DNA of 19,184 nt from an uncultured Clostridia bacterium (GTDB lineage: Bacteria > Bacillota > Clostridia > Christensenellales > Aristaeellaceae): NCBI GenBank assembly GCA_937886445.1, contig CALGBY010000112.1, positions 1 through 19,184 on the forward strand, given 5' to 3'. The translations under genes and the position numbers were made by a program. Each line of letters starts with the position of its first letter. The stretch's first letter is position 1. The notes beneath the pieces were generated by a model. That model was given only the letters and a program-made list of their open reading frames with translations. It searched no databases and was not told the DNA's origin. Of the stretch, positions 1,077 to 17,453 are shown one piece after another.

Positions 1077-1088
1077 TTATGACATAAT
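1077..1088 (+). repeat. attL core (TTATGACATAAT)
   Basis: Exact 12-mer is repeated at 13278..13289. Both copies begin at codon position 3 of the kinase frame. Confidence 0.75.
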
Positions 1089-1102
1089 GTTTCCTAAAGC
1101 TT

Positions 1103-1140
1103 GGGGAAGTGTTGATTTTCAACACTTCCCCTTATTTTTG
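1103..1140 (+). terminator. Rho-independent terminator just inside attL (perfect 13-bp stem, 3-nt loop, T-rich tail)
   Basis: GGGGAAGTGTTGA-TTT-TCAACACTTCCCC (1103..1131) is followed by TTATTTTTG. It also lies just downstream of the int stop on the other strand, where the tail is weaker. Confidence 0.7.
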
Positions 1141-1149
1141 TTACTAACG
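1139..1149 (+). repeat. TGTTACTAACG motif, candidate integrase arm-type site (left arm)
   Basis: The same 11-mer occurs at 13180..13190, with a further TGTTACTA at 13169..13176. It overlaps the int stop codon. Confidence 0.4.
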
Positions 1150-2163
1150 TGTTATTAGTTCAATTGCTTCCTTCAGTTCATCCAGCGTTTTATGGGTATA
1201 AACCCTTTCCCCAACATCCTTTGACTTGTGACCCATCATCAGATCTATGCACTTCTTATTGGCACCAGCAGAATCCAAGCTGGTTCTGAATGTGTGCCGT
1301 GTTTCATGGGGTGTGTGCTGCATCCCAAGATTATTACATGCCTGTGTAAAGTAATCCCTGAAGGTGCCGTCATCCATCGGATCACCGTTTTCATCAGTAA
1401 TCAGATAGGTTGACTTTGGATTGAAACGTGCTTGAACTAATTGAAATATTTTTGAATGGATGGGAACTATCCTGTCTTTTCCGTTTCTTGTTTTAATCCC
1501 ACCGGTCATGGTTCTGTTATTCAGATCAACATGATCTGTTCGTAAGGTTAGAATTTCTGTTATTCGCCAACCGGAATAGATCATGATCAGGATGCAGTCA
1601 ACCCATGGATCAGAAACATGCTTCCAAAGAAGTTCCACTTCTTCATCCGTGAAAGGTTGCCGGTCAGAATCTTCAACCGGTGCTGAAGTGGTCAGCTGGG
1701 AATACATAGTCTGGATCACTTCTATTTCCATTGCAAATCTGTCCAGATATCCCCACAAATTCTTGATGGCTGCTTGTGTTGAATATCCGTGTCCACAATT
1801 ATCAATAGTATCCTGCATCTGAAAAGACCTGATAGTTCTGTACTTCAATTCATCCAGCTTGGTGATGTGCTTGTAAGCGGATTTCAGTGAACCTTGAAGG
1901 GATTTTCCAAGCTTTGGAAGAATTGTTTTAGACCATTTTTCAAACAATTCTTTCAGGGTGATGTTCCGGGTATCCACATCATATGGATTCCGGTTGTAAT
2001 CAGCAAGTGCAATCATTCCTTCCTGCTTTGTTGCATAGTACCCAATGACAAGATAAACGGGGTGACCTTTTTCATTCCAGCCGGTTGTCTTTCTGACTAT
2101 GTAAGGTTTCCGTCTGTTACCGGAAAGCTTGACAACTGATCCATATCCGTTTGGATTTTTCAT
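1144..2163 (-). CDS. int: Tyrosine recombinase / phage-type integrase with AP2-like N-terminal DNA-binding domain
   Basis: 339 aa. The N-terminus GSVVKLSGNRRKPYIVRKT resembles the Integrase_AP2 type. The catalytic region has SGWRITE (Arg), HETRHTF (His-x-x-Arg), MGH and VYTH (Tyr). It lies adjacent to the att site. Confidence 0.9.
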   Translation of the reverse strand: MKNPNGYGSVVKLSGNRRKPYIVRKTTGWNEKGHPVYLVIGYYATKQEGMIALADYNRNPYDVDTRNITLKELFEKWSKTILPKLGKSLQGSLKSAYKHITKLDELKYRTIRSFQMQDTIDNCGHGYSTQAAIKNLWGYLDRFAMEIEVIQTMYSQLTTSAPVEDSDRQPFTDEEVELLWKHVSDPWVDCILIMIYSGWRITEILTLRTDHVDLNNRTMTGGIKTRNGKDRIVPIHSKIFQLVQARFNPKSTYLITDENGDPMDDGTFRDYFTQACNNLGMQHTPHETRHTFRTSLDSAGANKKCIDLMMGHKSKDVGERVYTHKTLDELKEAIELITR

Positions 2164-2280
2164 AAGCGCAAAACCTTCTTTTCATGTTGATACGGAAGGT
2201 TGTTAATCCTTATAAAAGGTGGTAAAATAAGAATTGATAGATACCTTCCATTCTTGGGTGTTTGGTGGGTGTTGGTCTGT

Positions 2281-2307
2281 CCGGGGAGAGGTGGTAGCTC
2301 TCCCCGG
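2281..2307. terminator. GC-rich hairpin between the 168-aa gene and int (10-bp stem, loop GTGGTAG)
   Basis: CCGGGGAGAG-GTGGTAG-CTCTCCCCGG is followed on the plus strand by ATTTTTCAT. There is no T tail on the minus strand, so leftward read-through into int is plausible. Confidence 0.5.
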
Positions 2308-2321
2308 ATTTTTCATATTCG

Positions 2322-2828
2322 TCATTTCAAATCAGAATCTATCAGTTCTGGCTTAATACCATCCAGAATAACAGATATAGCGTTGATGATAGATTTTTCT
2401 TCTGTTTTTAGTGCAATGCTGCGCAATTCATAAACAATCATATTTTCAAGTTCTTTATAAACTGTCATTCCATCAGGATCAGAGATTTTTATCATGTTAT
2501 TGTCAGCTTCAAGTTCTTCTTTCCACTCCAAAATATCTTCAGCTGCAACTTCACTTTCAGGGATTTGGAACAACTGATAAGGAATACCATTTTCGTCTTT
2601 CTTCGCTTCAACCGTTTTAGGTTGAACATGAATTCTCTGACAATTAGGACAAACAAACGCATAGAAAAATATGTTCTCCCCAATAGGAAATACCGTTGTG
2701 TTAAAATTCTTATCAGTTACACTTCTCCGATCAATATACCGTTCTGTTTTCTTCCCAGCATCTGCAACGAACAAATTATCTTCATAGATGTTCATAATTA
2801 AACGTGATCTGGCTTCTTTAATTGTCAT
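2322..2828 (-). CDS. Hypothetical protein (168 aa), no recognisable family
   Basis: ORF 2322..2834. The ATG at 2828 has an AAAGGAAG SD 8 nt upstream. It has a single CPNC motif and an acidic C-terminal half. Confidence 0.6.
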   Translation of the reverse strand: MTIKEARSRLIMNIYEDNLFVADAGKKTERYIDRRSVTDKNFNTTVFPIGENIFFYAFVCPNCQRIHVQPKTVEAKKDENGIPYQLFQIPESEVAAEDILEWKEELEADNNMIKISDPDGMTVYKELENMIVYELRSIALKTEEKSIINAISVILDGIKPELIDSDLK

Positions 2829-2876
2829 TCTCAATTCTTCCTTTCTTTTGATTATTCTTTGTTGATTTCTCTTGTT

Positions 2877-3002
2877 CTGACTACCTGACTATAAAATATA
2901 TATATTCTATATTCTTTCTTATGCGTGAAAAAAAATGAAATCATTTTCTTTTTTCCTTACGCAAAGGGTGAAAAACGGGGTTTCAAGTAGTCAGTTAGTC
3001 AG
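2877..3002. repeat. Candidate replication origin: inverted pairs of 7-mer iterons flanking a 96-bp AT-rich spacer
   Basis: CTGACTA c CTGACTA (2877..2891) and its complement TAGTCAG t TAGTCAG (2988..3002) flank the AT-rich stretch TAAAATATATATATTCTATATTC...GAAAAAAAATGAAATCATTTTCTTTTTT. It lies immediately downstream of the primase-helicase stop. Confidence 0.45.
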
Positions 3003-4989
3003 ATTTGATGAAATACTGACAGCGGACACCTTTGAAGGGTTCCCGCCGTAATTGCTTTGTTGAAAAACCGAACCGCTGTTTTATTCCCCGGCTGAAATCC
3101 TTCTGTTCTTTGGGTTCCAGACCAGAAGCAAAACAGAAGGATTTATAATCTGGATATAATCCGGTTGTTTCAACTCTGATCGGTTGCTTCAACAATTGGA
3201 TTTCATCAATGCTACATTCTTCCAGCCATTGAAGCACCGAATCATTTTCAGTTACGAACTGTTTCAAAATCCGTTCACTTTCTTTGGTGGAAATGAAACC
3301 GTTGTTTTCAATCAATGATTTGTAACCTTCAATAGCCATGTTCAGCAGCGTTGACAAGGATTGATCTGAAAGCAGTTTATCCAGAAGGTCAGGATCATAC
3401 CCTTTCACCTTCTGATTGAAAACCTTGTTGAATTCAAAGATAACCGCTCTTCTTTCAATCCCGTCAAAATCATTTGAAAAATCCGGGAAGTTGTTCATTC
3501 CAAAGATCAGTTTTCCGGTATAGATATAATCCTTGATTGTTTCCCGGTACTTCCTTTCAATGGAAATTGGGTCACCAGAAGAAAGGGATTTGAAAATTTC
3601 AGAGGAAAACACTTTCCCTTTCTTTGCATCTGAAAAGATATTTGCTGTTGTGTTTACCAGCGGAGTTAATCCGAACTTATCACCCATGTTTGAAAACTGA
3701 ACGTGTGAAACATTCCGCTTCCCGCAAAAGCTGGATATCAGATTTAGGGCTGTTGATTTTCCGGTTGACGGTTGACCAATCAAGAAGAAGAATTTCTGAT
3801 ACTTCACATGGTTCATCATCAGATAACCTATCATCTGTTTGAACAGTTCAATTTGCTTGAAATCCCTATTGAACCAACTGAATAGGGTTTCTTGCAACAG
3901 TTCATCAGCGGATTCAGGATCATAAAGGGCATTGAATTGCCTGAAGCTGATCCTTTCCGGGTTGTGGGGTTCAAAGGTGAATTCCCCGTTGTCAAATACC
4001 AGAATTCCGTTTCTAACATTGACCGTGTTATCATCTTCAGGAATTTCTTTCCGGGTGATTCCTTTGATGTGTCGGACAACTTCTTTTTCAAAGTTCCCGT
4101 TCAGCTTTGGTTTCATGGTTGTTAGATATTCCGTGATTCTGGATTCATCAAAGGGAAGATAAACCCCGTTTTCATAATCGTACATTGTCCCGTTGACCGT
4201 CATAAGCTGGAAGTGTTCCGCAACTTCATGCGCTACTTCAGAATGTGAAGGGGCGTTGTCCTTTTGGCTTTCCTTCAGCTTGTTCATGGTCTTTTCATTA
4301 AGGATTTCCGCTTTCAGGGTTTCTTCCGGTATTGGATCAGCGAAAACATAACCGTTCATCAGTTCGATAATCTGAAAAGCCTGTTCCACTGAATAACCTT
4401 TCTTCTGAACAAGATGAAACAGATAAGCCCCGATTTTTTGTGTTCTTTTCCCGGAAGGGAAATCAAGGTCAAAGGGCTTGCTATGTAACCCCTGAAGCGG
4501 AAACAGGAAGAAAGGCAATTCATCTACATCATCATTTTCAAGTGATCCCCGGAAGAATTCCCGCTTTACCCTGTTGATCTGAAGGGGGATATGATCATCA
4601 CTTGTTGGAAACTTCCATTCCATCTTTACCCCAACAGGACAATACCAATTCTGTTTGTTCTTTGCTTCAAGGGCTTCCGGTTTCCTGAAGAACAGGTGTT
4701 TTCCGTGTTCCGTTCTGATTCCGTTGTATTTGATATTCAGACTATCCAGTAGCGCAATAACAGCTTCAGACCGTGGCTTTCCTTTGATTGGTTCATCAAT
4801 TTCCCCGGTCTTGTGGTTGTAATCATCAATATCAACCTTCAGGAATTCAGGCTTATAGGAACAACCGTAACTATCCCATCTTGGATTGACTTTAGGATAA
4901 TACTTTCTTGGTGACTGATTAGGTTCAGGATTCTTAAACCCTGCTGGATGCTTTCCGTTGAATTCGATATACTGAACAATCAAAATCAA
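2995..4989 (-). CDS. Replication protein: primase/polymerase N-terminal region fused to a D5/P4-type superfamily-3 helicase domain
   Basis: 664 aa with Walker A GQPSTGKS and a later hydrophobic-DD/E region (ANIFSDAKKG). The size and layout are typical of phage/plasmid P4-family primases and satellite Pri-Rep proteins. The TTG start overlaps the upstream stop by 4 nt, so the start is uncertain. Confidence 0.85.
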   Translation of the reverse strand: MILIVQYIEFNGKHPAGFKNPEPNQSPRKYYPKVNPRWDSYGCSYKPEFLKVDIDDYNHKTGEIDEPIKGKPRSEAVIALLDSLNIKYNGIRTEHGKHLFFRKPEALEAKNKQNWYCPVGVKMEWKFPTSDDHIPLQINRVKREFFRGSLENDDVDELPFFLFPLQGLHSKPFDLDFPSGKRTQKIGAYLFHLVQKKGYSVEQAFQIIELMNGYVFADPIPEETLKAEILNEKTMNKLKESQKDNAPSHSEVAHEVAEHFQLMTVNGTMYDYENGVYLPFDESRITEYLTTMKPKLNGNFEKEVVRHIKGITRKEIPEDDNTVNVRNGILVFDNGEFTFEPHNPERISFRQFNALYDPESADELLQETLFSWFNRDFKQIELFKQMIGYLMMNHVKYQKFFFLIGQPSTGKSTALNLISSFCGKRNVSHVQFSNMGDKFGLTPLVNTTANIFSDAKKGKVFSSEIFKSLSSGDPISIERKYRETIKDYIYTGKLIFGMNNFPDFSNDFDGIERRAVIFEFNKVFNQKVKGYDPDLLDKLLSDQSLSTLLNMAIEGYKSLIENNGFISTKESERILKQFVTENDSVLQWLEECSIDEIQLLKQPIRVETTGLYPDYKSFCFASGLEPKEQKDFSRGIKQRFGFSTKQLRREPFKGVRCQYFIKSD

Positions 4990-5189
4990 TCACCGCTTTC
5001 ATGTACCAGCTTTTCAACAGGAACCTTCAGAACAGAAGCAATCTTTCCGATTGTGGCGGGTTTTCCTTCTTTTCCGTTCATCAGGTTCCGAAGGGTTGCA
5101 TACTGACACCCGGCCTGTTTGGATACCTGAAGCGGATTCAAGCAAGCGTTTGCCATAGCAAGTTCAAGTTTCTGTTTACTAATTTTCAT
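4986..5189 (-). CDS. Small XRE-family HTH protein (Cro-like; first gene of the leftward replication operon)
   Basis: The ATG at 5189 has a GAAAGGAAAG SD. The 67-aa product contains LQVSKQAGCQYATLRNLMNGKEGKPATIGKIASVLKV, which fits an HTH_3-type fold. The upstream extension to 5261 lacks an SD. Confidence 0.75.
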   Translation of the reverse strand: MKISKQKLELAMANACLNPLQVSKQAGCQYATLRNLMNGKEGKPATIGKIASVLKVPVEKLVHESGD

Positions 5190-5265
5190 TTCAATTCTTT
5201 CCTTTCTCTTTTCGTTCCGTGGTAAGGTACTACGCAAGCAAGGGTTATATGAAATTGACAAGGTT

Positions 5266-5350
5266 CAAAAACCGATTGTGTTTAATCGGTAAAAGTATGA
5301 TAGCAGATTGCTAACTATATGTCAACATCAAAAACAGATAGAAAATAATC
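5266..5350 (-). promoter_or_regulatory. Promoter-operator module copy 1 (leftward): TTGACA-17-TATCAT plus the palindrome ACCGATT-N6-AATCGGT at about +1..+20
   Basis: The -35 is at 5320..5325, the -10 at 5297..5302 and the palindrome at 5271..5290. An A/T-rich UP-like tract lies upstream. An ~85-bp near-identical copy is at 6261..6346. Confidence 0.65.
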
Positions 5351-5359
5351 ATTTCATTA

Positions 5360-5389
5360 TTGCCAATTCATCACAAGATATGGTATTTT
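5360..5389 (+). promoter_or_regulatory. Rightward promoter for the repressor gene (TTGCCA-18-TATTTT with TG extension)
   Basis: TTGCCA is at 5360..5365 and TGgTATTTT at 5381..5389. It is back-to-back with the leftward promoter. Confidence 0.45.
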
Positions 5390-5412
5390 ATTATTTTGTG
5401 GGGGTGGTTACT

Positions 5413-5766
5413 TTGTCATTTGCGGAAAGATTGCGGATGTACCGGAAGCAAGCACACCTAACACAAAAGCAGTTAGGTGAAAAATCTGGTTGTGCTGAAA
5501 TCAATATCAGGCAGTATGAAGCGGGAAAATATACACCGAAACCAGAAGCAGGAAAAAAGATTGCTGATGCTTTGGGGGTTTCTGTTTCTGATCTTTATGG
5601 TTGGGATGAAGGTTCAGCAGCTTTAGCAACGGAAGTTAAAGCCATTGAACAGCGGGAAAAGGATTTGTTGCGGATTTTCCGGGGGTTGAAGTCTGAAGGT
5701 CAGGAAAGGGCAATTGATTATTTAACTGATCTATCAGAAATTCCGAAATACCAAAGAGAAGAATAA
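5413..5766 (+). CDS. XRE-family HTH repressor (CI/Stl-like candidate master repressor), divergent from the cro-like gene
   Basis: LSFAERLRMYRKQAHLTQKQLGEKSGCAEINIRQYEAGKYTPKPEAGKKIADALGVSVSDLYGW is a classic HTH_3. It has a ~55-aa C-terminal extension. The start is taken as TTG 5413 after GGGGGTGG. The ATG at 5380 and the 5308 start lie upstream of the predicted promoter. The start is uncertain (GTG 5398/5404 are possible). Confidence 0.75.
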   Translation: MSFAERLRMYRKQAHLTQKQLGEKSGCAEINIRQYEAGKYTPKPEAGKKIADALGVSVSDLYGWDEGSAALATEVKAIEQREKDLLRIFRGLKSEGQERAIDYLTDLSEIPKYQREE

Positions 5767-5772
5767 AAAACA

Positions 5773-5800
5773 CCCGCTGAAGGTGGTAGGCTTCAGCGGG
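5773..5800. terminator. Bidirectional rho-independent terminator between the convergent repressor and 137-aa genes
   Basis: CCCGCTGAAG-GTGGTAGG-CTTCAGCGGG is preceded by AAAAAACA and followed by TTTCATCGTTT. Confidence 0.7.
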
Positions 5801-5828
5801 TTTCATCGTTTGGGGTTTAAGGTCTGAT

Positions 5829-6242
5829 TCAGGCAGCTTCAACAGCCGTTATCTGAATCGGTTCTGATTTCTTCCCGGTTAGGTTGACCGTGATAACCGC
5901 CCCGAAATCCTTCAGAAGATAGCTGATTGTCTGAAGGGCGGTTTCAAACTGCTTGAAGGAAACGAATTTCAGCCGGGGGAACTTGTCACCTTCCAGAAAC
6001 TTCATGGTTTCAACGGGGAATGAATTGTTCAGGCCATCAATCAGGCTGTTCATGATTTCCGAAACGTGGTAAACATCGAAGCTGTTCATGATCCGGGTTG
6101 CAACCGTCACCATTTCCCCGGATTCATCCACCATCTTCAGAACAAAAACCGGGGTAAGCTTTTCAGAAGCATTAGCCAAAGAAACGGAATACAGAGAAAC
6201 CTTGTGTTCACCATTGGTAAGGGCTGTTTTGATCATCAACAT
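5829..6242 (-). CDS. Hypothetical protein (137 aa), no recognisable family
   Basis: The ATG at 6242 has a GAAGGAAGG SD 8 nt upstream. It is driven by promoter-operator copy 2. It forms a monocistronic unit ending at the 5773..5800 terminator. Confidence 0.65.
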   Translation of the reverse strand: MLMIKTALTNGEHKVSLYSVSLANASEKLTPVFVLKMVDESGEMVTVATRIMNSFDVYHVSEIMNSLIDGLNNSFPVETMKFLEGDKFPRLKFVSFKQFETALQTISYLLKDFGAVITVNLTGKKSEPIQITAVEAA

Positions 6243-6260
6243 GATAGATACCTTCCTTCT

Positions 6261-6346
6261 CAAAATTCCGATTGCTTTCAATCGGTAAATGTATGATAAC
6301 AGATTGCAAACTATATGTCAACATCAAAAACAGATAGAAAATAATC
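6261..6346 (-). promoter_or_regulatory. Promoter-operator module copy 2 (leftward): TTGACA-17-TATCAT plus CCGATT-N6-AATCGG
   Basis: The -35 is at 6316..6321, the -10 at 6293..6298 and the palindrome at 6268..6285. In the 67-bp core (6280..6346 vs 5284..5350) I count 3 mismatches. Confidence 0.65.
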
Positions 6347-6354
6347 TGTTTTCC

Positions 6355-6384
6355 TTGCGTTTTCCCTTCAAATCATGTTATAAT
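6355..6384 (+). promoter_or_regulatory. Rightward promoter of small-ORF cassette A (TTGCGT-18-TATAAT with TG extension)
   Basis: TTGCGT is at 6355..6360 and TGtTATAAT at 6376..6384. Geometry relative to the duplicated module matches that of the repressor promoter in copy 1. Confidence 0.55.
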
Positions 6385-6390
6385 TAGTAA

Positions 6391-6488
6391 AAGTCGATTG
6401 TTCCCCCCCTTTTAGGCAGCGGGAAACAATGTGTGCTTCCAAAGCAATTTCACCCCTGTTGATTCGGCATAGCAACAGGGGGCTTTTT
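6391..6488 (+). ncRNA. Candidate ~95-nt structured leader or small RNA (two hairpins; the second is an intrinsic terminator)
   Basis: Hairpin 1 spans about 6397..6430 (ATTGTT..CCC / GGG.AACAAT). Hairpin 2 is CCCCTGTTG-N11-CAACAGGGG (6453..6481) followed by GCTTTTT. It lies between the promoter and the RBS of ORF A. Confidence 0.35.
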
Positions 6489-6514
6489 CATAAGATCAGA
6501 AAGGAAGGGTTGTC

Positions 6515-6658
6515 ATGATCCCGGAATGGTTTGAAGAATGGGTGATTTTGGAAACTGATAATTGGTACCTGAAACCGGATGCACCAAAGGAAATTCAGGA
6601 AGAATTTTCCCGCTGGATGAAAGAGCATGAAGGAAACGAAAATCTGATTGTGGATTGA
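6515..6658 (+). CDS. Small Trp-rich acidic protein A (47 aa), unknown function; paralog of 12627..12773
   Basis: It is below the ORF-track cutoff. The ATG at 6515 has an AAAGGAAGG SD. The product is MIPEWFEEWVILETDNWYLKPDAPKEIQEEFSRWMKEHEGNENLIVD. It is about 50% identical to a second copy on the opposite strand, which argues for real coding. Confidence 0.55.
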   Translation: MIPEWFEEWVILETDNWYLKPDAPKEIQEEFSRWMKEHEGNENLIVD

Positions 6659-6681
6659 CGATAATAACGGGTTAGTAACAG

Positions 6682-6724
6682 AAAAACCGGATTGATGTTA
6701 AAAACAAAGCATCCTTCCGGTTTT
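6682..6724. terminator. Bidirectional terminator shared by ORF A (+) and terS (-)
   Basis: The stem CCGGATTGATG...CATCCTTCCGG (6687..6720, 2-nt internal mismatch) is flanked by AAAAA upstream and TTTT downstream. Confidence 0.65.
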
Positions 6725-6780
6725 ATATAATATGCTGTAATGTTTGCTCAACCGTTTCCTCTAAATGAAGTTGACAAAAA

Positions 6781-7272
6781 TTAATCCTCTAATAGATCTG
6801 ATCCGCTGATCACAATCGGTTGATCAATAGTTAACTTGTATTTATCAGAAAAGATCCCCAAATGTCTACCCAGAAGTTCCAAGGCACGAACTTTATCAGG
6901 GAAACGCATTTCTATTTCTTCACCTTCACCGTTTTTCATTGGGATTTTTTTCACTCTAATTCCGGAAATTGTAGATAAATCTTCAGTTGAAACATCGGGG
7001 AGAATATGACCTGTATTCAGATCAACAACATCAGAAGGATTCTGAAAAGCAACTTTTGCTAGTTCCTTTATTACCCGATCTGCTGTTACTTCAGTTCTCT
7101 TTGACTGCTCTTCCATTAAACTTTGGATTTTTTCCAAAACGTTATCATAGGTTAACAGTCTTGCAGCTTGCTGAGTAGCGGTTTTCGGATTATAACCGGC
7201 ACGAATAGCAGCTTTTTTACCATTCATGTCAACTATGTATTCCTCACAAAATCTTTTCTGACGGATATTCAT
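6781..7272 (-). CDS. terS: Terminase small subunit (Terminase_2 / P27-like family)
   Basis: The ATG at 7272 has an AGGAGAAAG SD. MNIRQKRFCEEYIVDMNGKKAAIRAGYNPKTATQQAARLLTYDNV is the characteristic N-terminal HTH signature of this family. No large subunit gene follows. Confidence 0.85.
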   Translation of the reverse strand: MNIRQKRFCEEYIVDMNGKKAAIRAGYNPKTATQQAARLLTYDNVLEKIQSLMEEQSKRTEVTADRVIKELAKVAFQNPSDVVDLNTGHILPDVSTEDLSTISGIRVKKIPMKNGEGEEIEMRFPDKVRALELLGRHLGIFSDKYKLTIDQPIVISGSDLLED

Positions 7273-7328
7273 GTAAATCTTTCTCCTATCCTGTGTAACA
7301 CCGATATATATCAATATATAAAGTGATT

Positions 7329-7820
7329 TCAGACAACTGAAGCATATTCTTCTATCTTTCCTTCCTTTTCTAGAAGGTCAAAAATTGCTAGTAAGCCTTT
7401 TTCATAATACCTGAATGATGTTTTTTCACTCACATCGTCAAAATCAAGTATTACTGACCAAGGAAGAAGGTGAATGTGTTTTAAGCAAAGATAGATTCGA
7501 CTGTTTCTATCCTGAACCATTTCAATTGCTTTCCTGACTTCAATCTGCATATCAACCAGTTCTGCAAGTTTATCTTCAGCGAGATTTTCAAGCTGCTCTT
7601 TTTCTTGAAAAAATTTTTCGTAGTAAGCTTCTTGTTTCTTGGATGTTTGTACAGAAGGTTTATCCAATTGTATTGGTGGTAAACTGTACATTTTTTCATT
7701 TGCCTTTTTTATCTCTCCGATCAATGATTCTATTTCCAAGTCTGATCTTTCGTATCTGGAAAGAAACGACCGGGCTATTCGCTTTTTCTGCATTGGATCA
7801 TAGTTGGTTGTTCGAAGCAT
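7329..7820 (-). CDS. Putative late-gene transcriptional activator with a sigma-70 region-4-like C-terminal HTH (RinA/ArpU/DUF1492-type position)
   Basis: 163 aa. The C-terminus RIYLCLKHIHLLPWSVILDFDDVSEKTSFRYYEKGLLAIFDLL resembles a region-4 HTH. It sits immediately upstream of terS, as late activators do in Firmicute siphophages. It has an AGAGGTGA SD. Confidence 0.5.
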   Translation of the reverse strand: MLRTTNYDPMQKKRIARSFLSRYERSDLEIESLIGEIKKANEKMYSLPPIQLDKPSVQTSKKQEAYYEKFFQEKEQLENLAEDKLAELVDMQIEVRKAIEMVQDRNSRIYLCLKHIHLLPWSVILDFDDVSEKTSFRYYEKGLLAIFDLLEKEGKIEEYASVV

Positions 7821-7833
7821 TATTAATCACCTC

Positions 7834-8004
7834 TTACAAATGAAACATTATCTTAAAGTTTTCTACTTCTTTCCGATAGTTATCAGTCATTCTTCGGAGT
7901 GTCTGAGTTCTTACATTTGAATTTCTGGCTGAAAGAATCAATACTTTTTCTTTTTTTAACCGTTCGTATTCAAATTGACGCAGCTGCTTTTCAACCTTTC
8001 GCAT
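7834..8004 (-). CDS. Small basic hypothetical protein (56 aa)
   Basis: It is below the ORF-track cutoff. The ATG at 8004 has an AAAGGAAG SD. The product is MRKVEKQLRQFEYERLKKEKVLILSARNSNVRTQTLRRMTDNYRKEVENFKIMFHL. It fills an otherwise empty gap in a tightly packed operon. Confidence 0.45.
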   Translation of the reverse strand: MRKVEKQLRQFEYERLKKEKVLILSARNSNVRTQTLRRMTDNYRKEVENFKIMFHL

Positions 8005-8018
8005 TGACAATACTTCCT

Positions 8019-8207
8019 TTACTGCTGTTCTGATTGTTCCATCAGAAGATCACGGAAAAAATCATCGGGATTTCCAAAAACAAGCCTTGGATTCAGATTC
8101 AACGGTTTTCTTTCGTTTTCATTCTGTTTCTGGATACGACTATATTTTGGTGATATATATTCAGATCCATATGAGATTTGATATACTTCTTCTTTTCTGG
8201 TTTTCAT
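8019..8207 (-). CDS. Hypothetical protein (62 aa)
   Basis: The ORF is in the operon orientation, but I see no clear SD upstream of the ATG at 8207. Confidence 0.35.
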   Translation of the reverse strand: MKTRKEEVYQISYGSEYISPKYSRIQKQNENERKPLNLNPRLVFGNPDDFFRDLLMEQSEQQ

Positions 8208-8223
8208 GATTGTTTAGAAAATC

Positions 8224-8257
8224 ATACCGGGTTTGTAGTAAATCACAAACCCGGTAT
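8224..8257 (-). terminator. Perfect 13-bp hairpin after the 251-aa gene (terminator or attenuator)
   Basis: ATACCGGGTTTGT-N8-ACAAACCCGGTAT. On the minus strand it is followed by GATTTTCT, a short T tract, so termination may be partial. Confidence 0.5.
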
Positions 8258-8271
8258 AGTCAGTTCATGAT

Positions 8272-9027
8272 TTACTTCAAAATAGTTTCAATCAATTCTC
8301 GGTCAGAGATAACATGATTCTGAAACAGACTGGAAAATTGGTTTTCCAGAACTGAATACATCTTCCCGACTTGAATCATCCATTCTTCACATGAAAGGAA
8401 ACTGTAAGGAATCCTATCCTGCATATAAATAACCGGGGAATCATTAACAGACGAAGCGTAAAAATCATAGTTGGCTGCATTGGTGAGGATGTCTTTTATT
8501 CGATCAAAGTAATTCAGATAATCAACAACGTTTGTATATACACCGGATTTTTCTTCAATCATAATCAGAACTTCATTACTATACTGATCAACCCCACCAA
8601 GGGATCTTGTTTTAGAATCAGCCTTGACACGGATAACATCCAGTACAGTTTTTGTACTTCGATATGATCCTGATAATGGTTGAAGGATATTTTTAAGATT
8701 CACAGTATCCAAGGAAGAATCCAGCATATCAACAACACGAAGAGCATTCTGAATATCAACGGAATGATCTTTGTTATCTTCCGGGAAAGTAATTTCAAAA
8801 TCCTTGCAGAATTTATCAACAATTTCCCGGAAAAGCTTACTCATGTTTTTACAGCTTTCCTTAAGTTCAGAGAAGATGACCTGTTTCTTCTCTTCTTTTC
8901 CTTTCGGTGACCATCTCCAATCAGCCATCAATTGATTCAGGGAATCACCTTTTTCTTTAATCGTTTTTGCAAAGAGAGCATTCATAGTACGAACCTGATC
9001 TGCATATGTTTTGTAATTAGTTGTCAT
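8272..9027 (-). CDS. Hypothetical protein (251 aa), apparently helical, no recognisable family; co-transcribed with the tape measure gene
   Basis: The ATG at 9027 has an AAGGGTGG SD 8 nt upstream and lies 30 nt after the tape-measure stop. It does not resemble the beta-rich distal tail proteins that normally follow a tape measure gene. Confidence 0.65.
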   Translation of the reverse strand: MTTNYKTYADQVRTMNALFAKTIKEKGDSLNQLMADWRWSPKGKEEKKQVIFSELKESCKNMSKLFREIVDKFCKDFEITFPEDNKDHSVDIQNALRVVDMLDSSLDTVNLKNILQPLSGSYRSTKTVLDVIRVKADSKTRSLGGVDQYSNEVLIMIEEKSGVYTNVVDYLNYFDRIKDILTNAANYDFYASSVNDSPVIYMQDRIPYSFLSCEEWMIQVGKMYSVLENQFSSLFQNHVISDRELIETILK

Positions 9028-9057
9028 TATGTTTTCCACCCTTTCTTTTTGTATTAA

Positions 9058-12000
9058 TTATAAGTAAATCCCTTCCGCAACGATTTCCAACCGTTCTGCA
9101 ACCTTGTCTTCCAACTGGGAAATAATGCCGTCAATATCCATGTCAGAACTGATCGTGTTATTGTTGTTCATTTCAACCTTCACTTCAGCTGTTGTGAAGT
9201 GATTGATCACTTCACGTTCAGCCAGTGACCGGATCTTCTGAACATCAGAATCAGACAATTTCACAGCATCAGAAGCATCTTCTATCAACTGTGCTTGTTC
9301 CATGGCAGCAAAGTCACCGATCAAAGACCATGTAGAATCATCCCATGCTTTGGTAATGCCAGTGGAAGCGCTGACAACAGCCTTTTCCATATCATACCGA
9401 CCATCATTCACGGCATTGACATAACCGGCAACCATCATGGATCCAGACCAATAGGTTTCCTTAGACGGGGAATGAATACCGGCAGCAGCATTGGCAGCAG
9501 CCAAAGCATTTCTGACAACGGCAGCAGCAGCTGCTGCAACCGCACCGGATCCGGAATTGATACCCTGTACAAAACCGGCATCAATCATTGCACCGGTTGT
9601 AGCTGCAACACCAACAACCATTCCAGCAGTGGACTGAATACCGATTGCCAAACCTTCATTCAAGAAACCACCGGCAGCAATAGTATAGGTAGACGGGGAA
9701 GCAACACCCAAGGCACTGAGGATAGCACTTACCGTTGCGGATGCCATAGCGGAACCGGATGCAGCCGGTTGACTGGCACTTCCGTCAATACCACCGGCAA
9801 GACCGGCAGACAAGTAAGCACCCCATTCAGCAGGATTTTCACCGGCTGCTTCCAGCGCTTGTTTGAAATCCAATGTTTTGATGATTCCTTCCATGGCACC
9901 GGAAAGACCGGACATATCCATGTTTTCACTGATTTCAGGATTTTCAAGCATGGATTTAAGCAAGCTGGAAAGAATCGGATTATCAGATACAGTCTGAAGA
10001 TCATTAGAAAGTGCTTCCATGATCTGTTTTTCGTAATCATCCATGAATAAATCGACATTGCCTAATTGACCGACACCAAAGAGATCATAGAAGGATTCAA
10101 AACTATCAAATCCACCAAATTGATCAGCAAAGAATCCACTATCCCATGCAGATTTTGCAATAGCCTTAGTATAAGCTGCATACTGTTGATCAAACATTTC
10201 ATTGTATGTACCGTCAGCATTATAGGTACTCAAATTACTCCGTTCAACAAACATCCGCATTACATCATAATCACCAGCTGCCTTTTCTAAAGCAGATGCA
10301 GCTTCCGGATACTGGGAAGCCATACCATTGAAAAGTTCACTGATTCTTTGGGTGTATTCAGTGCGAAGTGAATCAAGTTCTGTACTAAGGGAAGTTCTCA
10401 GGGTGTCATATTCCAGCCTTGCAGCTTCAGCAGCAGCGGTATCACCGGCAGCAGCTGCTTCAGCAATCTTCCGTTCAGCTTCCTGCATTTTGGCAGCGTA
10501 TTCAGAAGCAACCTGATCAATTGCAGCATTGGATTTTGCTGCTTCATAAGCAACGGCAGTTCCAAACATGTCAGTGGTGCCAAAACCATAAGCAACAGCG
10601 GTTGAAGTATTTTCATAATCTTGATTTATTTCACCGGGTTTCAAACCGTCCAATGCTGCTTGAACTTCTGCTATCTTACCCATGGTGCTGTTATAAGTTC
10701 CGTCATCAATCGTGATCGGAATATCCTTGGCACCTTCCAGAATTCTGTCCAGATCGGAAGGAATAGATGCAATGGCTGTACCGATAGCAGCCACGGCACC
10801 GGCAATCAGCATAGCCTGACCAACGGGTGTATTCACCACAAAATTGGTAACCGCACCAAACGCTTTTGTCAGCGTTTCAGAATTCTTGATTCCTTTGATT
10901 GTTTTCAAAGCGGTACTTACAGTTTTCACGGCAGTACCGGCAATGGTCAAAGTCGGTCCAAGTGCAGCCAAACCACCAAGGAAGGTGATCAAAGCAGTCT
11001 GATCTTCTTCAGACATTTTGTTGAATCCATCAAGGATGTTATTCACAATATCCAGTGCCGGTTGAAGCGCTTGGGCAAGATTTTCACCGAATTCAGCCAT
11101 GGTATTATGAAGCTTGTTTCCAAGCATACCGGTCTGACTTTCGGTTGTTTCCATTTGCTTGTTGAATTCTTCAGTAGCTGCTGTTCCCTGATCGTAAGCA
11201 TCCACAGCAGCCTGAATAGCGGATGCAAACAGTTCCGGTCTGGATGCCATTGCAGCAATCAGATTTGACTCACGGATTTCTTTCAGACCCATCTTGTCCA
11301 AGACGGCAAGAATGGATTCACCACCGTTTTCACCCATCTTGCTAAGTCCAACAAAGAAGTTGGACATGGCATCAGCAGGATTCTTGTTCCAGTCATCAAT
11401 GAACTGCTGTGAAGTTTTTCCGGATGCTTCAGCAAACTGATCCATCAGCAGCCAACTGTCACCCATGGATTTGACGGCATCCACCGTCATGTTCATGCTT
11501 GTGGCGAGATCAACCAGATCTTCTTTCTTGGCACCGTCAACCCATTGACTGAATTCAAGACCAGATCCAAATTCCATACCGGCAGCGGAAAGTTTCTGCT
11601 GTGCCTGACCACCAACTTCAGCAGCCATCTGGAATTGTTTAATCAATTTTGCAGCAGCTGAACCACCGGCTTCCGGATTGATACCAACAGCCCGGAAAGC
11701 GGTTGCCATACCAAGAATTTCAGGTGTAGATATCCCGGCAAGGTGTGCAGCGGAAGCCATTCTGTTACCAAGGGCAAGGATCTGGTCTTCAGTGGCATTG
11801 AAGTTGTTGCCCAGATCAACAACGGCAGAGGAAAAAGCCCCAATGTTGGCAACTCCACCTTCAGTGATGTTCAGGAAAGAAGCAACATCCTGAGCGCCAC
11901 TTTCACCAGAAATGTGCTGATCAGTAGCATACTGAAGTTTGGCATATTCAGTCATGAAAGCTTCCATGTCATTGATAGCCACACCCAAGTTACCACCGGT

Positions 12001-12402
12001 TTGAGCAATTCCCATCAGGTCTACATAGGACATGGGGGTTGTTTCGGACAGTTCCAAAGCGGTTTCTTTCAGCGCTTGATACTGGGCATCTGTTCCTTCA
12101 ACCGTCTTGGTCATTCCGACAAAGGCAGCTTCATAATCAGAGAAATCACCAAACATACTTTTGCCAAGGGCAATCAATGGGGCAGTAATGGCAAGTGTCA
12201 TGGTCTTACCAACCTTCTGCATCCGTTCCCCGGCAGCTTCAGCTTTGGCAATGAAATTATCAAAGCTGAAGCCGTCAATGGTTCCCTGTTCGTCAGCTAC
12301 ACCTTTAAGGGCTGATTTCATGGAATTGATATTCTCTTCAATGGTAGCCAGCTTTCCGGACATCTTGTCAACAAGTTCAATCGTTGAAGATATCGTTGCC
12401 AT
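9058..12402 (-). CDS. Phage tail tape measure protein (TP901-family core region)
   Basis: 1114 aa. The N-terminal region is coiled-coil-like. The segment ...LSETTPMSYVDLMGIAQTGGNLGV...LGNRMASAAHLAGIS... is typical of the TP901 TMP core. There are central hydrophobic segments (ALITFLGGLAALGPTLTIAG, AMLIAGAVAAIGTAIASI). The C-terminal region is Ala/Gly-rich and contains the GIHSPSKETYWSG motif common in Firmicute TMPs. Confidence 0.85.
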   Translation of the reverse strand: MATISSTIELVDKMSGKLATIEENINSMKSALKGVADEQGTIDGFSFDNFIAKAEAAGERMQKVGKTMTLAITAPLIALGKSMFGDFSDYEAAFVGMTKTVEGTDAQYQALKETALELSETTPMSYVDLMGIAQTGGNLGVAINDMEAFMTEYAKLQYATDQHISGESGAQDVASFLNITEGGVANIGAFSSAVVDLGNNFNATEDQILALGNRMASAAHLAGISTPEILGMATAFRAVGINPEAGGSAAAKLIKQFQMAAEVGGQAQQKLSAAGMEFGSGLEFSQWVDGAKKEDLVDLATSMNMTVDAVKSMGDSWLLMDQFAEASGKTSQQFIDDWNKNPADAMSNFFVGLSKMGENGGESILAVLDKMGLKEIRESNLIAAMASRPELFASAIQAAVDAYDQGTAATEEFNKQMETTESQTGMLGNKLHNTMAEFGENLAQALQPALDIVNNILDGFNKMSEEDQTALITFLGGLAALGPTLTIAGTAVKTVSTALKTIKGIKNSETLTKAFGAVTNFVVNTPVGQAMLIAGAVAAIGTAIASIPSDLDRILEGAKDIPITIDDGTYNSTMGKIAEVQAALDGLKPGEINQDYENTSTAVAYGFGTTDMFGTAVAYEAAKSNAAIDQVASEYAAKMQEAERKIAEAAAAGDTAAAEAARLEYDTLRTSLSTELDSLRTEYTQRISELFNGMASQYPEAASALEKAAGDYDVMRMFVERSNLSTYNADGTYNEMFDQQYAAYTKAIAKSAWDSGFFADQFGGFDSFESFYDLFGVGQLGNVDLFMDDYEKQIMEALSNDLQTVSDNPILSSLLKSMLENPEISENMDMSGLSGAMEGIIKTLDFKQALEAAGENPAEWGAYLSAGLAGGIDGSASQPAASGSAMASATVSAILSALGVASPSTYTIAAGGFLNEGLAIGIQSTAGMVVGVAATTGAMIDAGFVQGINSGSGAVAAAAAAVVRNALAAANAAAGIHSPSKETYWSGSMMVAGYVNAVNDGRYDMEKAVVSASTGITKAWDDSTWSLIGDFAAMEQAQLIEDASDAVKLSDSDVQKIRSLAEREVINHFTTAEVKVEMNNNNTISSDMDIDGIISQLEDKVAERLEIVAEGIYL

Positions 12403-12481
12403 TCCGTTTCACCGTCCTTTCTGTATAAGATTCGGGGGAATTCTGCATAAAATAGATATTATATTGAATAATCCCATGAAA

Positions 12482-12510
12482 ATTATACCACAAAATGTTA
12501 GCAAATGCAA
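12482..12510 (-). promoter_or_regulatory. Near-consensus promoter directly upstream of the tape measure gene (TTGCAT-17-TATAAT with TG extension)
   Basis: On the minus strand the -35 is at 12505..12510 and the -10 at 12482..12487, preceded by TGg. It lies about 73 nt upstream of the TMP ATG and just downstream of the cassette B terminator. Confidence 0.6.
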
Positions 12511-12601
12511 ACGAAACCATTTATTTTCAACGGTTTCAGCCATTTCAAGCGGGACTGAATTTTATTCATTTTATTCAATTTTTCAATGAAATGATTGAAA
12601 T

Positions 12602-12627
12602 GAAAAAACCGGGCTGCTACACCCGGT
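12602..12627 (-). terminator. Rho-independent terminator of small-ORF cassette B
   Basis: The minus strand reads ACCGGG-N8-CCCGGT followed by TTTTTT. The stem overlaps the ORF B stop codon. Confidence 0.65.
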
Positions 12628-12773
12628 CAATCAACACATATTCCCGTTGTTTCGGTATCGTGAAGCTTCATCCATTCTTCAAATTCCTTCCGGTGTTCCT
12701 CATGGGTTCCCGGCTTCAGATGCCAATTATCCGTTTCAAAGATAACCCATTCAGGGAACCAATCAGGAAACAC
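12627..12773 (-). CDS. Small Trp-rich acidic protein B (48 aa), paralog of 6515..6658
   Basis: The GTG at 12773 has a GGAAGGGG SD 7 nt upstream and an in-frame stop just upstream. The product is VFPDWFPEWVIFETDNWHLKPGTHEEHRKEFEEWMKLHDTETTGICVD. The shared pattern is P-[DE]-WF-x-EWVI-x-ETDNW-x-LKP...EF..WMK.H...VD. Confidence 0.5.
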   Translation of the reverse strand: MFPDWFPEWVIFETDNWHLKPGTHEEHRKEFEEWMKLHDTETTGICVD

Positions 12774-12807
12774 GATTTCACCCCTTCCAGATCATCAGAA
12801 AGAATAT

Positions 12808-12857
12808 CCCTTCCCCAAGGCTTGATTGTGCCTAATCAACCAACTTTAGGGGAAGGG
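12808..12857 (-). promoter_or_regulatory. Leader hairpin of cassette B containing an anti-SD-like arm
   Basis: CCCTTCCCC (12849..12857) pairs with GGGGAAGGG (12808..12816), with an inner TTGATT/AATCAA stem. A T-rich ATATTCTTTCT follows. The same CCCTTCC could instead pair with the SD GGAAGGG at 12782..12788. Confidence 0.4.
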
Positions 12858-12901
12858 TGCCGAAAAAGAAACCAAAAATGAAAACCCGATGCCATACGGA
12901 C

Positions 12902-12930
12902 ATTATACACCTTTTCCCGGACACAGTAAA
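12902..12930 (-). promoter_or_regulatory. Promoter of cassette B (TTTACT-17-TATAAT)
   Basis: On the minus strand the -35 is at 12925..12930 and the -10 at 12902..12907. Confidence 0.45.
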
Positions 12931-13130
12931 CCCCCGGTTGGCTGGAAACCAGGGGTTGCCTTCAGGCTTCACTTCCTTCAGGATGAACAAATTGTATTAC
13001 CTTCAGAAAGCCCCGTCAATATAGCCCAGCCTTTCAGATTTGCGATTCTGGCGGGGTCTGATCGTTTTCCCCGGTATTCGCCCATCTGAACCGGAAAGGG
13101 GCTAAAAAGGGCTGTTTTTGAGCCAAAGAA

Positions 13131-13157
13131 GGAACCGGGCAAAAAACACCCGGTTCC
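13131..13157. other. Perfect 9-bp GC-rich hairpin in the right att arm
   Basis: GGAACCGGG-N9-CCCGGTTCC. On the minus strand it is followed by TTCTTTGG, a weak tail. It may insulate the element from transcription entering from the right junction, or it may be a structural att element. Confidence 0.35.
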
Positions 13158-13168
13158 GGTCTGATCCT

Positions 13169-13190
13169 TGTTACTACCCTGTTACTAACG
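13169..13190 (+). repeat. Tandem TGTTACTA motifs at 11-bp period (candidate arm-type integrase sites, right arm)
   Basis: TGTTACTAccc TGTTACTAACG. The second copy is identical over 11 bp to 1139..1149 in the left arm, in the same orientation. Confidence 0.4.
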
Positions 13191-13277
13191 GGGGAGTTTT
13201 CCCCGGTCTGAAAAAAGCCTCTGAAGCTTGAAACGGTTGAACTTTCAGCCCTTTCAATACGTTGAAATTGAACAAAT

Positions 13278-13289
13278 TTATGACATAAT
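13278..13289 (+). repeat. attR core (TTATGACATAAT)
   Basis: It is an exact copy of 1077..1088. The flanking bases differ on both sides. Confidence 0.75.
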
Positions 13290-14268
13290 AACAGATGCGA
13301 ACGGACAGATCACGAAGCAAGACGCGAGGGGCATCATAGATCCGGAAGAACATCAGGTCGAAGAGATGGTGCGGCAGATCCTCTCAGGTGGAAGAATGAC
13401 CGGCAATATCAGGCCCTTCAAATATGGGACGGCCATCACACAAGATGGTACACGCATTATTTTAGTGGACCAGTCATTCCAGCTGCAGTTTATCTATTCT
13501 AACCTTCGCGGTGCATTACTTGTATCAGTTGCCTGTTTGCTGCTCATGTTCATCATTTTACAACCGATTGCCCGTAGGGTTGCAAAGGCAATAATGGCAG
13601 CACAGGAACGACAGCGCCAGTTTATGACCAATGCAAACCATGAAATGAAAACGCCTGTCGCGGTCATTCAATCAAACATCGAAGCAATGGAAATGATCAA
13701 CGGTCAGAACAAATGGAGCCGGAATGTCCACCAGCAGACTTTGCGTTTGAATTATATGATTTCTCAGTTGCTCCTTCTTGAACGTATGGGAGAATACACA
13801 TACCAAAGTCCAAGAAAACCGGTCAGTATCGGCGTTCTTGTAAAGACAATTACGGAAGATATGGGTGAACTGCTGGCGCAAAGAAACATTCGTATTGATT
13901 ATGACGTCAGCGATCAATGTGTGATCTGTGGTTATGAAGAAGCCTTAATTCAACTGATCAGAATATTGGTAGATAATGCAGCCCGTTACGCATCCGAAAA
14001 CTCATTGCTGTCCATTTCTGCTATTCGACATGGCCGAACTTCAATCATTCGCTTTTTGAATCAAGTTGAACATTTACCGGACTGCGCGCCGGATCTGCTT
14101 TTTGAGCGATTTCATCGAGGTGGGATTGCACGAAAAACGGGCGATGTTGGCTGCGGGATTGGATTGTCAGCGGCATCAAGTATTGTTTCAATGCACCACG
14201 GAGAAATCAATGCCTCATATCCGGATGAACACAGCTTTCAAATTACAATCAGGCTTCCAACCAAGTAA
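13278..14268 (+). pseudogene. 3' portion of the sensor histidine kinase gene (rest of the extracytoplasmic domain, TM2, HisKA, HATPase_c)
   Basis: ...LLVSVACLLLMFIILQPI is TM2. The H-box is FMTNANHEMKTPV, the N-box is LVDNAARYA, and the G-boxes are GCGIGLSAASSIV. The ORF-track start at 13228 (TTG) is element DNA with no SD, and an in-frame stop lies at 13222. Confidence 0.85.
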
Positions 14269-14275
14269 TTCAATC

Positions 14276-14300
14276 CCTGCAGAGCAGTCTGCAGGTTTTT
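14276..14300 (+). terminator. Rho-independent terminator after the kinase gene
   Basis: CCTGCAGA-GCAG-TCTGCAGG is followed by TTTTT. Confidence 0.7.
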
Positions 14301-14323
14301 CATTTTTGGGGATCCTCCTAATC

Positions 14324-14362: not shown

Positions 14363-14448
14363 CTGCATCTAAGGTTCATCTAAGTGAAAACCGCTATCCT
14401 TGAATTACCGTCAGAAAAAGGCGGCAGCAAAAGAAAGGAGTTATTTGC

Positions 14449-17436: not shown

Positions 17437-17453
17437 AGAAAGAGAGGATCATC

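Follow-up and report, generated by a model that had tools for sequence, protein, structure and literature searches.

Two orphan copies of a small phage protein, putative partners of a virion metallopeptidase, in a satellite-like element of an uncultured Clostridia bacterium

A stretch of 19,184 nucleotides from an uncultured Clostridia bacterium (assembly GCA_937886445.1, contig CALGBY010000112.1, positions 1 to 19,184; hereafter the window) holds two short gene cassettes that face each other, cassette A on the plus strand and cassette B on the minus strand, each with an open reading frame (ORF) for a protein of fewer than 50 residues. What are these proteins, and why should a mobile element carry the gene twice? 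An initial annotation of the window had taken the pair for a private duplication of the element. The reading that we favour, with about even confidence, is that ORF A and ORF B are orphan partners, antidotes or regulators, of a peptidase in the virion of a helper phage, each expressed by the satellite from its own promoter behind an attenuating leader.

ORF B (12773..12627, minus strand; 48 aa, GTG start) and ORF A (6515..6658, plus strand; 47 aa, ATG start) are 55% identical in protein sequence (26 identical columns), a little above the value of about 50% that had been estimated by hand, and their alignment holds a single one-codon indel close to the C-terminus, as the initial annotation had said; the peptide that it gave for ORF B is identical to the computed translation. 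The BLOSUM62 local score of the pair is 146, compared with 27 ± 5.6 (maximum 60) in 2000 shuffles, so that z = 21. Codon-aligned nucleotide identity is 62%, with 69/75/42% for codon positions 1/2/3, and the Nei-Gojobori proportions of nonsynonymous (pN) and synonymous (pS) differences are 0.30 and 0.83, the latter being saturated. The ratio of nonsynonymous to synonymous rates (dN/dS) is 0.1–0.4 when ORF A and ORF B are compared with 12 homologous copies from other contigs (loci carry the prefix L below, and the two window copies are winA and winB). Within each lineage of close relatives it is 0.10 for winB/L001 and 0.17 for L001/L002 in the B lineage, and 0.09–0.12 in the A lineage (winA, L003, L008). 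Thus, the resemblance is well above chance and the coding sequence is under purifying selection; the alignment and rate comparison proposed as a check bear out the earlier claim of selection on the protein rather than a chance ORF.

The view of a private duplication did not survive the wider search, since the protein proved to be one of a large phage family that is linked with a metallopeptidase domain. The motif search that had been suggested gave a divided result: a peptide-motif scan of 185,579 representative genomes returned no relatives, and scans of IMG/VR and metagenomes returned eleven loci, two being duplicates. A word-indexed search yielded four close clusters only; a full hidden Markov model (HMM) search yielded 60 representatives at 50% identity with E < 1e-3, and at least 638 clusters at 90% identity, all unnamed. 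ORF A and ORF B match the family HMM with E = 1e-23 and 2e-23, respectively, and are 56–65% identical to the copies in L004, L007, L009, and L011, which lie beside the metallopeptidase gene. The family consensus is P-x-[WF]-F-..-[WY]-[VF]-V-x-E-x-D-N-W-H-L-K-x-x-A-P-E-E-..-F-E-E-[WF]-M, and an AlphaFold (AF2) model with a predicted local distance difference test score (pLDDT) of 78 consists of a short helix, a β-hairpin, and one helix.

The small proteins have no sequence match in Pfam, NCBIfam, PADLOC, or the Protein Data Bank (PDB), and in PHROG they give only weak hits, to two families of unknown function. No profile of Imm-SuFu or of other curated immunity or defence families in Pfam, NCBIfam, and PADLOC matched them. 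A Foldseek search with the AF2 model found nothing in the PDB; its BFVD hits are all uncharacterised phage proteins of matching size (best 46% identity, E = 0.08). Moreover, tblastn of ORF B, P0016, and the L004 peptidase domain gave no match in 50,697 deposited phage genomes; therefore, at the sensitivity of tblastn, this phage group is not in the cultured-phage records. Two details of the family may be added. In the member P0036, an LKPxAPKEAKEAY core stands in three tandem copies. The conserved K-P-x-A-P segment might be taken for a substrate mimic of a Pro-directed peptidase; the model puts the segment in a loop and a helix N-cap, so that its conservation may be purely structural.

What ties the family together is the gene in front of it. 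In the loci other than L001, L002, and L008, which are phage contigs reaching 50 kb at most, the genes run terS, terL, portal, a minor head protein of the MuF/gp7 type (~595 aa), the small ORF, an ORF of 82–91 aa, scaffold, and major capsid protein. Seven more distant family members were looked up besides the first loci. In all 15 phage-type loci examined (13 non-redundant), the upstream gene encodes a protein with a metallopeptidase (MPTase) domain at its end, and the small ORF starts −14 to +13 nt from the stop codon of that gene. The carrier of that domain varies. L044, L046, and L047 have the domain on a MuF protein, L045 on a 905-aa portal fusion, L048 on a 642-aa protein, L041 and L042 on GNAT-type polyvalent proteins beside an ART-PolyVal gene, and L043 on a 535-aa protein whose gene is flanked by head-completion genes and the tail terminator. 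The upstream proteins nonetheless share one C-terminal domain of ~170 residues (BLASTP E = 1e-6 to 1e-25 across architectures), with the motifs FHP..HExxHAxD..SGYAT..E[FW]FAE..PR. Searched against the PDB, a profile of this domain finds the anthrax lethal factor catalytic domain (E = 4e-6 to 5e-5) and, at a weak level, the Pro-Pro endopeptidases; the Pfam ATLF and M90 matches fall just under threshold, and the Pfam MPTase-PolyVal model does not match. By its motifs and profile matches, the upstream domain is a zincin metallopeptidase of the anthrax-lethal-factor-like kind.

The retrieved passages of Iyer et al. (2017; PMC5512222) name the zincin MPTase as the commonest domain of virion-delivered polyvalent proteins and give two features of one widespread phage-type clade, namely a conserved His ahead of HExxH and an Asp at the third residue past it. 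Both are visible in our alignment of the upstream domains. About 20% of MuF toxins have been reported with a metallopeptidase domain, and a small ORF, proposed to be an immunity gene, follows 89% of MuF toxin genes (Jamet et al. 2017; PMC5576092); in the supplementary tables of that paper, the names of peptidase domains were not found in the text. Judged by the position expected of a partner gene, immediately downstream of the effector gene, all 15 phage homologs qualify; ORF A and ORF B stand elsewhere and are linked to the effector by homology to the copies that adjoin it.

The position of the gene in the closest phages also suggests another role. There, the MuF minor head gene precedes it and the scaffold and major capsid genes follow, and in one family member, P0012, the small domain is fused with a head protease domain of the XkdF type (Peptidase_S78_2). 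The protein might accordingly be a cofactor of head assembly or packaging that acts on the portal, the MuF N-domain, the scaffold, or the protease, with the satellite copies redirecting or blocking helper capsids and the link to the peptidase being incidental; the further helper-derived packaging and virion genes of the satellite, terS and a tape-measure gene, would suit such a hijack. We consider it unlikely, however, because the sole invariant neighbour of the family is the MPTase domain, and neither MuF nor the head module. The small gene follows a portal fusion in L045 and GNAT-type or other polyvalent proteins in L041, L042, and L048; in L043, head-completion genes and the tail terminator flank the pair.

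The two window copies are found outside any such operon. Both lie in a satellite-like element of 12.2 kb (1077..13289) that sits inside a histidine-kinase gene and is flanked by a 12-bp direct repeat, TTATGACATAAT, at its attachment (att) junctions (1077-1088 and 13278-13289). Excising the element in silico regains the kinase frame (...SGYYDI joined to ITDANG...). The element has what is expected of a phage-inducible chromosomal island (PICI): a tyrosine integrase (1144-2163; Pfam E = 2.5e-23), att repeats, and a size within ~10–15 kb; a repressor and regulator module composed of an XRE repressor, a divergent helix-turn-helix (HTH) gene (p91), and a DUF1492-type regulator; its own replication gene, a D5-type primase; and terS (Terminase_2) as a packaging hijack gene, besides several ORFs with no assigned function. 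A scan of ORFs of at least 130 aa and of smaller ORFs found no capsid, portal, terL, or lysis genes in the element, as expected of a satellite. We therefore classify it, on its gene set, as a PICI-like phage satellite, unusual in adding a tape-measure gene. That gene (TMP; 9058-12402, minus strand) is full-length, encodes 1114 aa, and has its own promoter (12511-12482).

The small gene is of phage origin, and the packaging and virion genes of the satellite point to its source. Its TMP is 52% identical over 1113 aa to those of L006 and L014 and 45–49% identical to those of L009 and L004, and its terS is 52% identical to the terS of L004 and L011. Because these genes are homologous to those of the phage group of L004, L006, L011, and L014, that group is the likely helper. 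The satellite has taken terS, TMP, and, twice, the small gene from this one group of siphophages, its likely helpers, but not the peptidase: an MPTase domain is encoded neither in the window nor in the satellite-type contigs L001–L003 and L008. Since the window encodes no MPTase, ORF A and ORF B are orphan copies. The 255-aa satellite protein has no relatives in IMG/VR, and a satellite with its own tape-measure gene and two small genes of a head module was not found described in the literature searched.

The mechanism that we propose, at the even confidence given above, is as follows. In the phage, the gene for the small protein is translationally coupled behind the virion gene that ends in the MPTase domain (MuF/gp7-type, portal, or polyvalent). 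In the satellite, each unit consists of its own promoter of the sigma-70 type, a leader of ~100 nt ending in a terminator-like hairpin, a strong Shine-Dalgarno sequence (SD), the ORF, and a terminator, and the leader terminator would keep expression low until read-through. The satellite-made proteins would bind the MPTase domain of the helper virion protein and neutralise or retime the peptidase, much as orphan immunity or antidote genes do in polymorphic-toxin systems. A cell that takes in satellite DNA from a peptidase-loaded helper capsid could be protected in this way, or else a satellite-carrying cell attacked by such phages, and with two diverged copies more helper variants would be covered. 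A copy of its own under a housekeeping-type promoter makes sense for a satellite, because helper capsids would deliver the MuF-MPTase without the partner gene of the helper. The binding, the direction of its effect, and the attenuation at the leader are inferred, unlike the selection on the coding sequences, the homology, the neighbourhood rule, the orphan status, and the retention of the cassettes in relatives, all of which are shown.

A bolder form of this proposal, which we hold to be rather doubtful, is that a family of Clostridia satellites with Lachnospiraceae-like hosts carries orphan, diversified antidotes against a MuF-borne capsid metallopeptidase, by which a satellite survives booby-trapped capsids or shields its host, and turns these genes on via a leader terminator, with its conserved loop, that answers to a helper or satellite factor. 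If true, this would define a new family of immunity proteins directed at lethal-factor-like peptidases of the virion, and would add a layer to the conflict between satellite and helper. Peptidase-bearing MuF and polyvalent virion proteins are widespread and have hardly been tested as toxins, processing enzymes, or anti-defence effectors; a small partner found behind the peptidase domain on unrelated carriers offers a concrete, testable handle on the role of the peptidase. Satellite orphans with their own promoters, in two lineages, show that the partner is valuable away from the peptidase gene, a pattern expected of an antidote or a decoy. A satellite that keeps its own tape-measure gene, in turn, bears on the exploitation of helpers in gut or rumen Firmicutes.

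Several observations weigh against the antidote reading and should be set beside it. The phage gene is part of a late structural operon, so that an assembly or regulatory cofactor fits as well as an antidote. In the retrieved passages of PMC5512222, those who described the MPTase of polyvalent proteins view it as a processing peptidase rather than a toxin, for which reason "immunity" is perhaps the wrong word. An immunity family for lethal-factor-like toxin domains is known already, namely Imm-SuFu (PMC3482391), and the small protein is not Imm-SuFu. The relationship to the helper is drawn from the homology of terS, TMP, and the small protein. The sole in-frame fusion of a peptidase tail with the small domain, P0160, was rejected as strong evidence because the peptidase gene on its contig is frameshifted; the fusion has no relatives. 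Finally, codon 24 of ORF B (12702-12704) specifies His, where over 90% of the family, including the closest relatives L001 and L002, have Pro. With this change at a nearly invariant site, the ORF B copy of the window may be drifting, or may be changing its specificity. ORF B also has His in place of Tyr27.

The anatomy of the cassettes agrees with what the initial annotation had described: promoter, hairpin, SD, ORF, and terminator of cassette B were all located at the minus-strand positions that it gave, and the layout is common to A and B, with a leader core that is homologous in sequence. The promoter of cassette B is of the sigma-70 type (TTTACT at 12930-12925, a spacer of 17 nt, and TATAAT at 12907-12902; 10 of 12 matches in a consensus scan) and is kept in L002 and L008. 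It is followed by the leader hairpin (12808..12857), with outer arms CCCTTCCCC (12857-12849) and GGGGAAGGG (12816-12808), an inner stem, and an 8-nt loop, ATTAGGCA, which is held within the conserved loop motif TTGATTAGGCACA (12839-12827). A T-rich tail (12807-12797) follows, and hairpin and tail together look like a terminator or attenuator. The SD, GGAAGGGG (12788-12781), lies 7 nt 5' of the GTG at 12773, and an intrinsic terminator stands 3' of the ORF (12628-12607, then TTTTCATTTC; feature 12600..12628). Only non-coding DNA from the att side precedes ORF B. There, a further hairpin, CCCCTGGTT...AACCGGGGG (12931..12955, minus strand), touches the −35 hexamer and is kept in L002 and L008; it probably insulates the cassette from read-through from the att side.

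Cassette A repeats the arrangement on the plus strand. Its promoter (TTGCGT-18-TATAAT, 6355..6384) has a weak −35 hexamer and is kept in L003; the leader hairpin, CCCCTGTTG...CAACAGGGGG followed by TTTTT (6453..6488), has the loop motif TTGATTCGGCATA at 6459-6471; and an TAGTAACA box with a terminator hairpin (6673..6722) stands 3' of ORF A. L003 retains the stem of the leader hairpin via a T-A to G-C double change. ORF A is preceded by a divergent promoter region, in which a near-consensus promoter on the minus strand (TTGACA-17-TATCAT with an extended TG, 6293-6321) drives a gene for a 150-aa protein (5829-6281) and diverges from promoter A.

Both cassettes are retained in related elements of independent samples, at 70–96% protein identity, and with their neighbours. 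The neighbour of cassette A in L003 is, as in the window, the gene for the 150-aa protein, and that of cassette B in L001, L002, and L008 is the tape-measure gene, with the ORF ~230 nt upstream as in the window. Between L003 and the window, the N-terminus of the 150-aa protein is 94% identical and ORF A just 70%. In a neighbour-joining tree, the A lineage (winA, L003, L008) has 79% bootstrap support and the B lineage (winB, L001, L002) 96%. A clade of A and B appears in 2% of the replicates, with phage copies placed between them, in a topology that is weak for 48 residues; the phage copies are thus not excluded, which again counters a private duplication. Because the leaders are homologous and are not present in the phage loci, we favour a history in which a satellite cassette was duplicated long ago and the copies then diverged or had their coding part replaced; two independent captures would be the alternative. 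The two copies lie 5.97 kb apart, close to the 5.9 kb given initially. They do bracket the block from terS to TMP, as had been described, and we see no sign of a bracketing function. Recombination between them is unlikely, since their longest common exact run is just 12 nt and is out of register.

A variant in L008 (277-501) bears on how the cassettes are built. There, a promoter and leader of the B type drive an ORF of 74 aa, whose stop codon overlaps the start of a small ORF of the A type (ATGA); that the promoter and leader drive another ORF here shows the cassette to be of modular build. In the phages, the gene of 82–91 aa that follows the small ORF is a homolog of this 74-aa ORF (38% identity, E = 1e-10), and the window has no homolog of the 74-aa ORF. 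Its candidacy as a PepSY-like peptidase inhibitor was dropped after Pfam and PADLOC gave no support.

These relatives also help in weighing two rival explanations of the window copies. The first is that they are passenger DNA, remnants of pieces of a helper genome that are open by chance or have lately been inactivated. The P24H change and the GTG start of ORF B would suit such decay, and the family has no demonstrated function. The explanation is nevertheless highly improbable. The dN/dS values of 0.09–0.17 indicate purifying selection in each satellite lineage, and the private promoters, SDs, and terminators are not present on the phage copies. In the comparison with L002, moreover, identity is 97% for the tail and SD segment (12807-12774), 88% for ORF B, 86% for the promoter, and only 69% for the adjoining tape-measure gene, so that ORF B with its tail and SD stands above the neighbouring gene.

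The second is that the proteins were recruited from a phage as regulators of the satellite life cycle, for example as an anti-repressor or a modulator of the XRE repressor or of the DUF1492 activator, their link to the peptidase having been lost. Each copy does come with a private promoter and a regulated-looking leader, the XRE/p150 control region adjoins ORF A, and the satellite copies depart from the phage consensus in lineage-specific ways. Yet the proteins have no DNA-binding motif and match no regulator family, and the residues conserved throughout the family are kept in A and B, which argues for an ancestral interaction surface. The int, primase, and HTH genes of the element resemble those of integrative elements in Lachnospiraceae genomes, and in the primase-related elements of that group (L015–L021) no homolog of the small protein was found within 10 kb. 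We consider a regulatory role of this kind quite improbable.

The leaders call for separate treatment, since a conserved RNA could be the functional product in its own right. Both leaders carry the TTGATTNGGCAYA pattern (6459-6471 and 12839-12827) in the loop region of a GC-rich hairpin that is followed by a T tract, and both continue, after the hairpin, with a GATCnGAAAGG Shine-Dalgarno region and the start codon. Relatives of the leaders were found in contigs of other samples, of the B type in L002 and partly in L001, of the A type in L003, and also in L008; the phage loci are without the leader. On this view, the segment from promoter to terminator would make a small RNA of ~100 nt or a riboregulator, with the ORF secondary. 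Several traits speak for it: the TTGATTNGGCAYA loop is kept in 5 of 5 leaders, the window has three matches to it (at most one mismatch) against 0.35 expected, a number that no shuffle reaches, one compensatory pair separates winA from L003, and folding relative to shuffles gives z = −4.5 for the leader of L003 and −4.2 for that of L008. The leaders of the window itself, however, fold no better than shuffles (z = −0.7 and −0.3), and neither has an Rfam match in a scan of the whole window (E <= 1). The leader loop GGTTGATTAGGCACA has 19 exact matches in IMG/VR, none in a hairpin or leader context, which look like chance, and the leaders have no antisense target in the window or the phage loci. 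Since selection on the ORF is clear at the protein level, we regard an RNA-centred explanation as very improbable. From its anatomy, we infer that the leader of the orphan-partner cassettes may act as a promoter-proximal terminator or attenuator.

The initial annotation had proposed a possible riboregulatory alternative for cassette B, in which CCCTTCC pairs either within the hairpin or with the SD. This pairing is possible in leaders of the B type and does not extend to the A type; it appears only with the 3' arm blocked and is then 14–17 kcal/mol worse than the hairpin, so that the case for an SD/anti-SD switch is weak. What pairs with the SD when winB, L002, and winA adopt their minimum-energy folds is the T tail of the hairpin, a pairing that A and B thus share. 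Each leader also has a second, 5'-proximal hairpin (12884-12901, minus strand; 6396-6428, plus strand) whose loop contains GGCA: UAUGGCAU in B, UUUUAGGCAG in A, and UUUUAGGCAA in L003. GGCA loops are thus shown twice per leader.

How far does this arrangement depart from systems already described? The phage homologs resemble the small ORFs of the MuF systems (PMC5576092) in their length of 44–60 aa, their place directly behind a C-terminally extended MuF gene, and their setting in the packaging and head module. That paper, however, defines no family and tests no small ORF paired with a metallopeptidase; moreover, the partner described here also follows the peptidase on carriers other than MuF, and the window copies lie on a satellite, under private promoters, with no toxin gene alongside. 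As in the polyvalent MPTase of Iyer et al. (2017), as far as the retrieved passages go, the domain encoded upstream in the phages has HExxH with the preceding His, the Asp three residues after, and a downstream Glu, and it matches the catalytic domain of lethal factor; here, that domain is the partner of the small protein and not the small protein itself. A small companion protein for the MPTase is not mentioned in the passages of PMC5512222 that a term search retrieved.

With the orphan immunity genes of polymorphic-toxin, contact-dependent inhibition (CDI), and type VI secretion (T6SS) systems (Zhang et al. 2012; PMC3482391), the window copies share being stand-alone, diverged, multi-copy homologs of a toxin partner borne on a mobile element; unlike those genes, their immunity role is only putative, and Imm-SuFu is unrelated to the small protein. 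The element resembles the PICIs and the Staphylococcus aureus pathogenicity islands (SaPIs) in its ~12 kb, integrase, XRE repressor with a divergent HTH gene, D5-type primase, own terS, DUF1492-type late regulator, and att-flanked form lacking capsid, portal, terL, and lysis genes. It differs from them in its full-length tape-measure gene and its two copies of a small gene of the helper head module, and its induction and packaging by a helper are putative. A small ORF after MuF toxins and orphan immunity genes are, as general ideas, already known. New, in that neither was found in the literature searched, are the present family with its carrier-independent link to the peptidase and its presence on satellites.

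The surroundings of the element allow some further observations. At the insertion site, a response-regulator gene (134-856) adjoins the kinase, whose parts are found at 748-1088 and 13290-14268, and genes for an HlyD-like protein and a MacB-type ATP-binding cassette (ABC) transporter lie downstream. The two-component system could therefore be switched off by integration and on again by excision, which would restore the kinase frame.

Short repeats rich in TTGAA, namely TTTCAGCCnTTTCAA, GCTTGAAA, and CGTTGAAA, occur at 12520-12581, 5' of the TMP promoter, and at 13226-13276, by attR, in both direct and inverted orientation. TTGAAT/ATTCAA repeats stand at the equivalent place in L001, L002, L003, and L008. 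These repeats may be binding sites of a regulator or recombinase, or may be due to chance.

The 8-mer TAGTAACA occurs four times in the window (1139-1146, 6673-6680, 13169-13176, and 13180-13187) against 0.27 expected. Elsewhere, it was found in L002 (124/135), L003 (512), L008 (661), L004 (6466), L006 (6569), L009 (6499), and L011 (2529/2540). It is often paired at a period of 11 nt and always lies on the sense strand, right after a stop codon and right before a terminator hairpin. The genes that it follows are the integrase gene, ORF A, and phage terL, and it is thus common to the satellite and to the helper-like phages; it could be a packaging signal, an arm site, or an RNA-processing signal. 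Near the right end of the element, GGTCTGATCGTTTTCCCCGGT at 13055-13075 is repeated 103 nt away (13158-13207), where ~29 nt with a double TAGTAACA box interrupt it, as though the pair of boxes had been inserted into a duplicated sequence.

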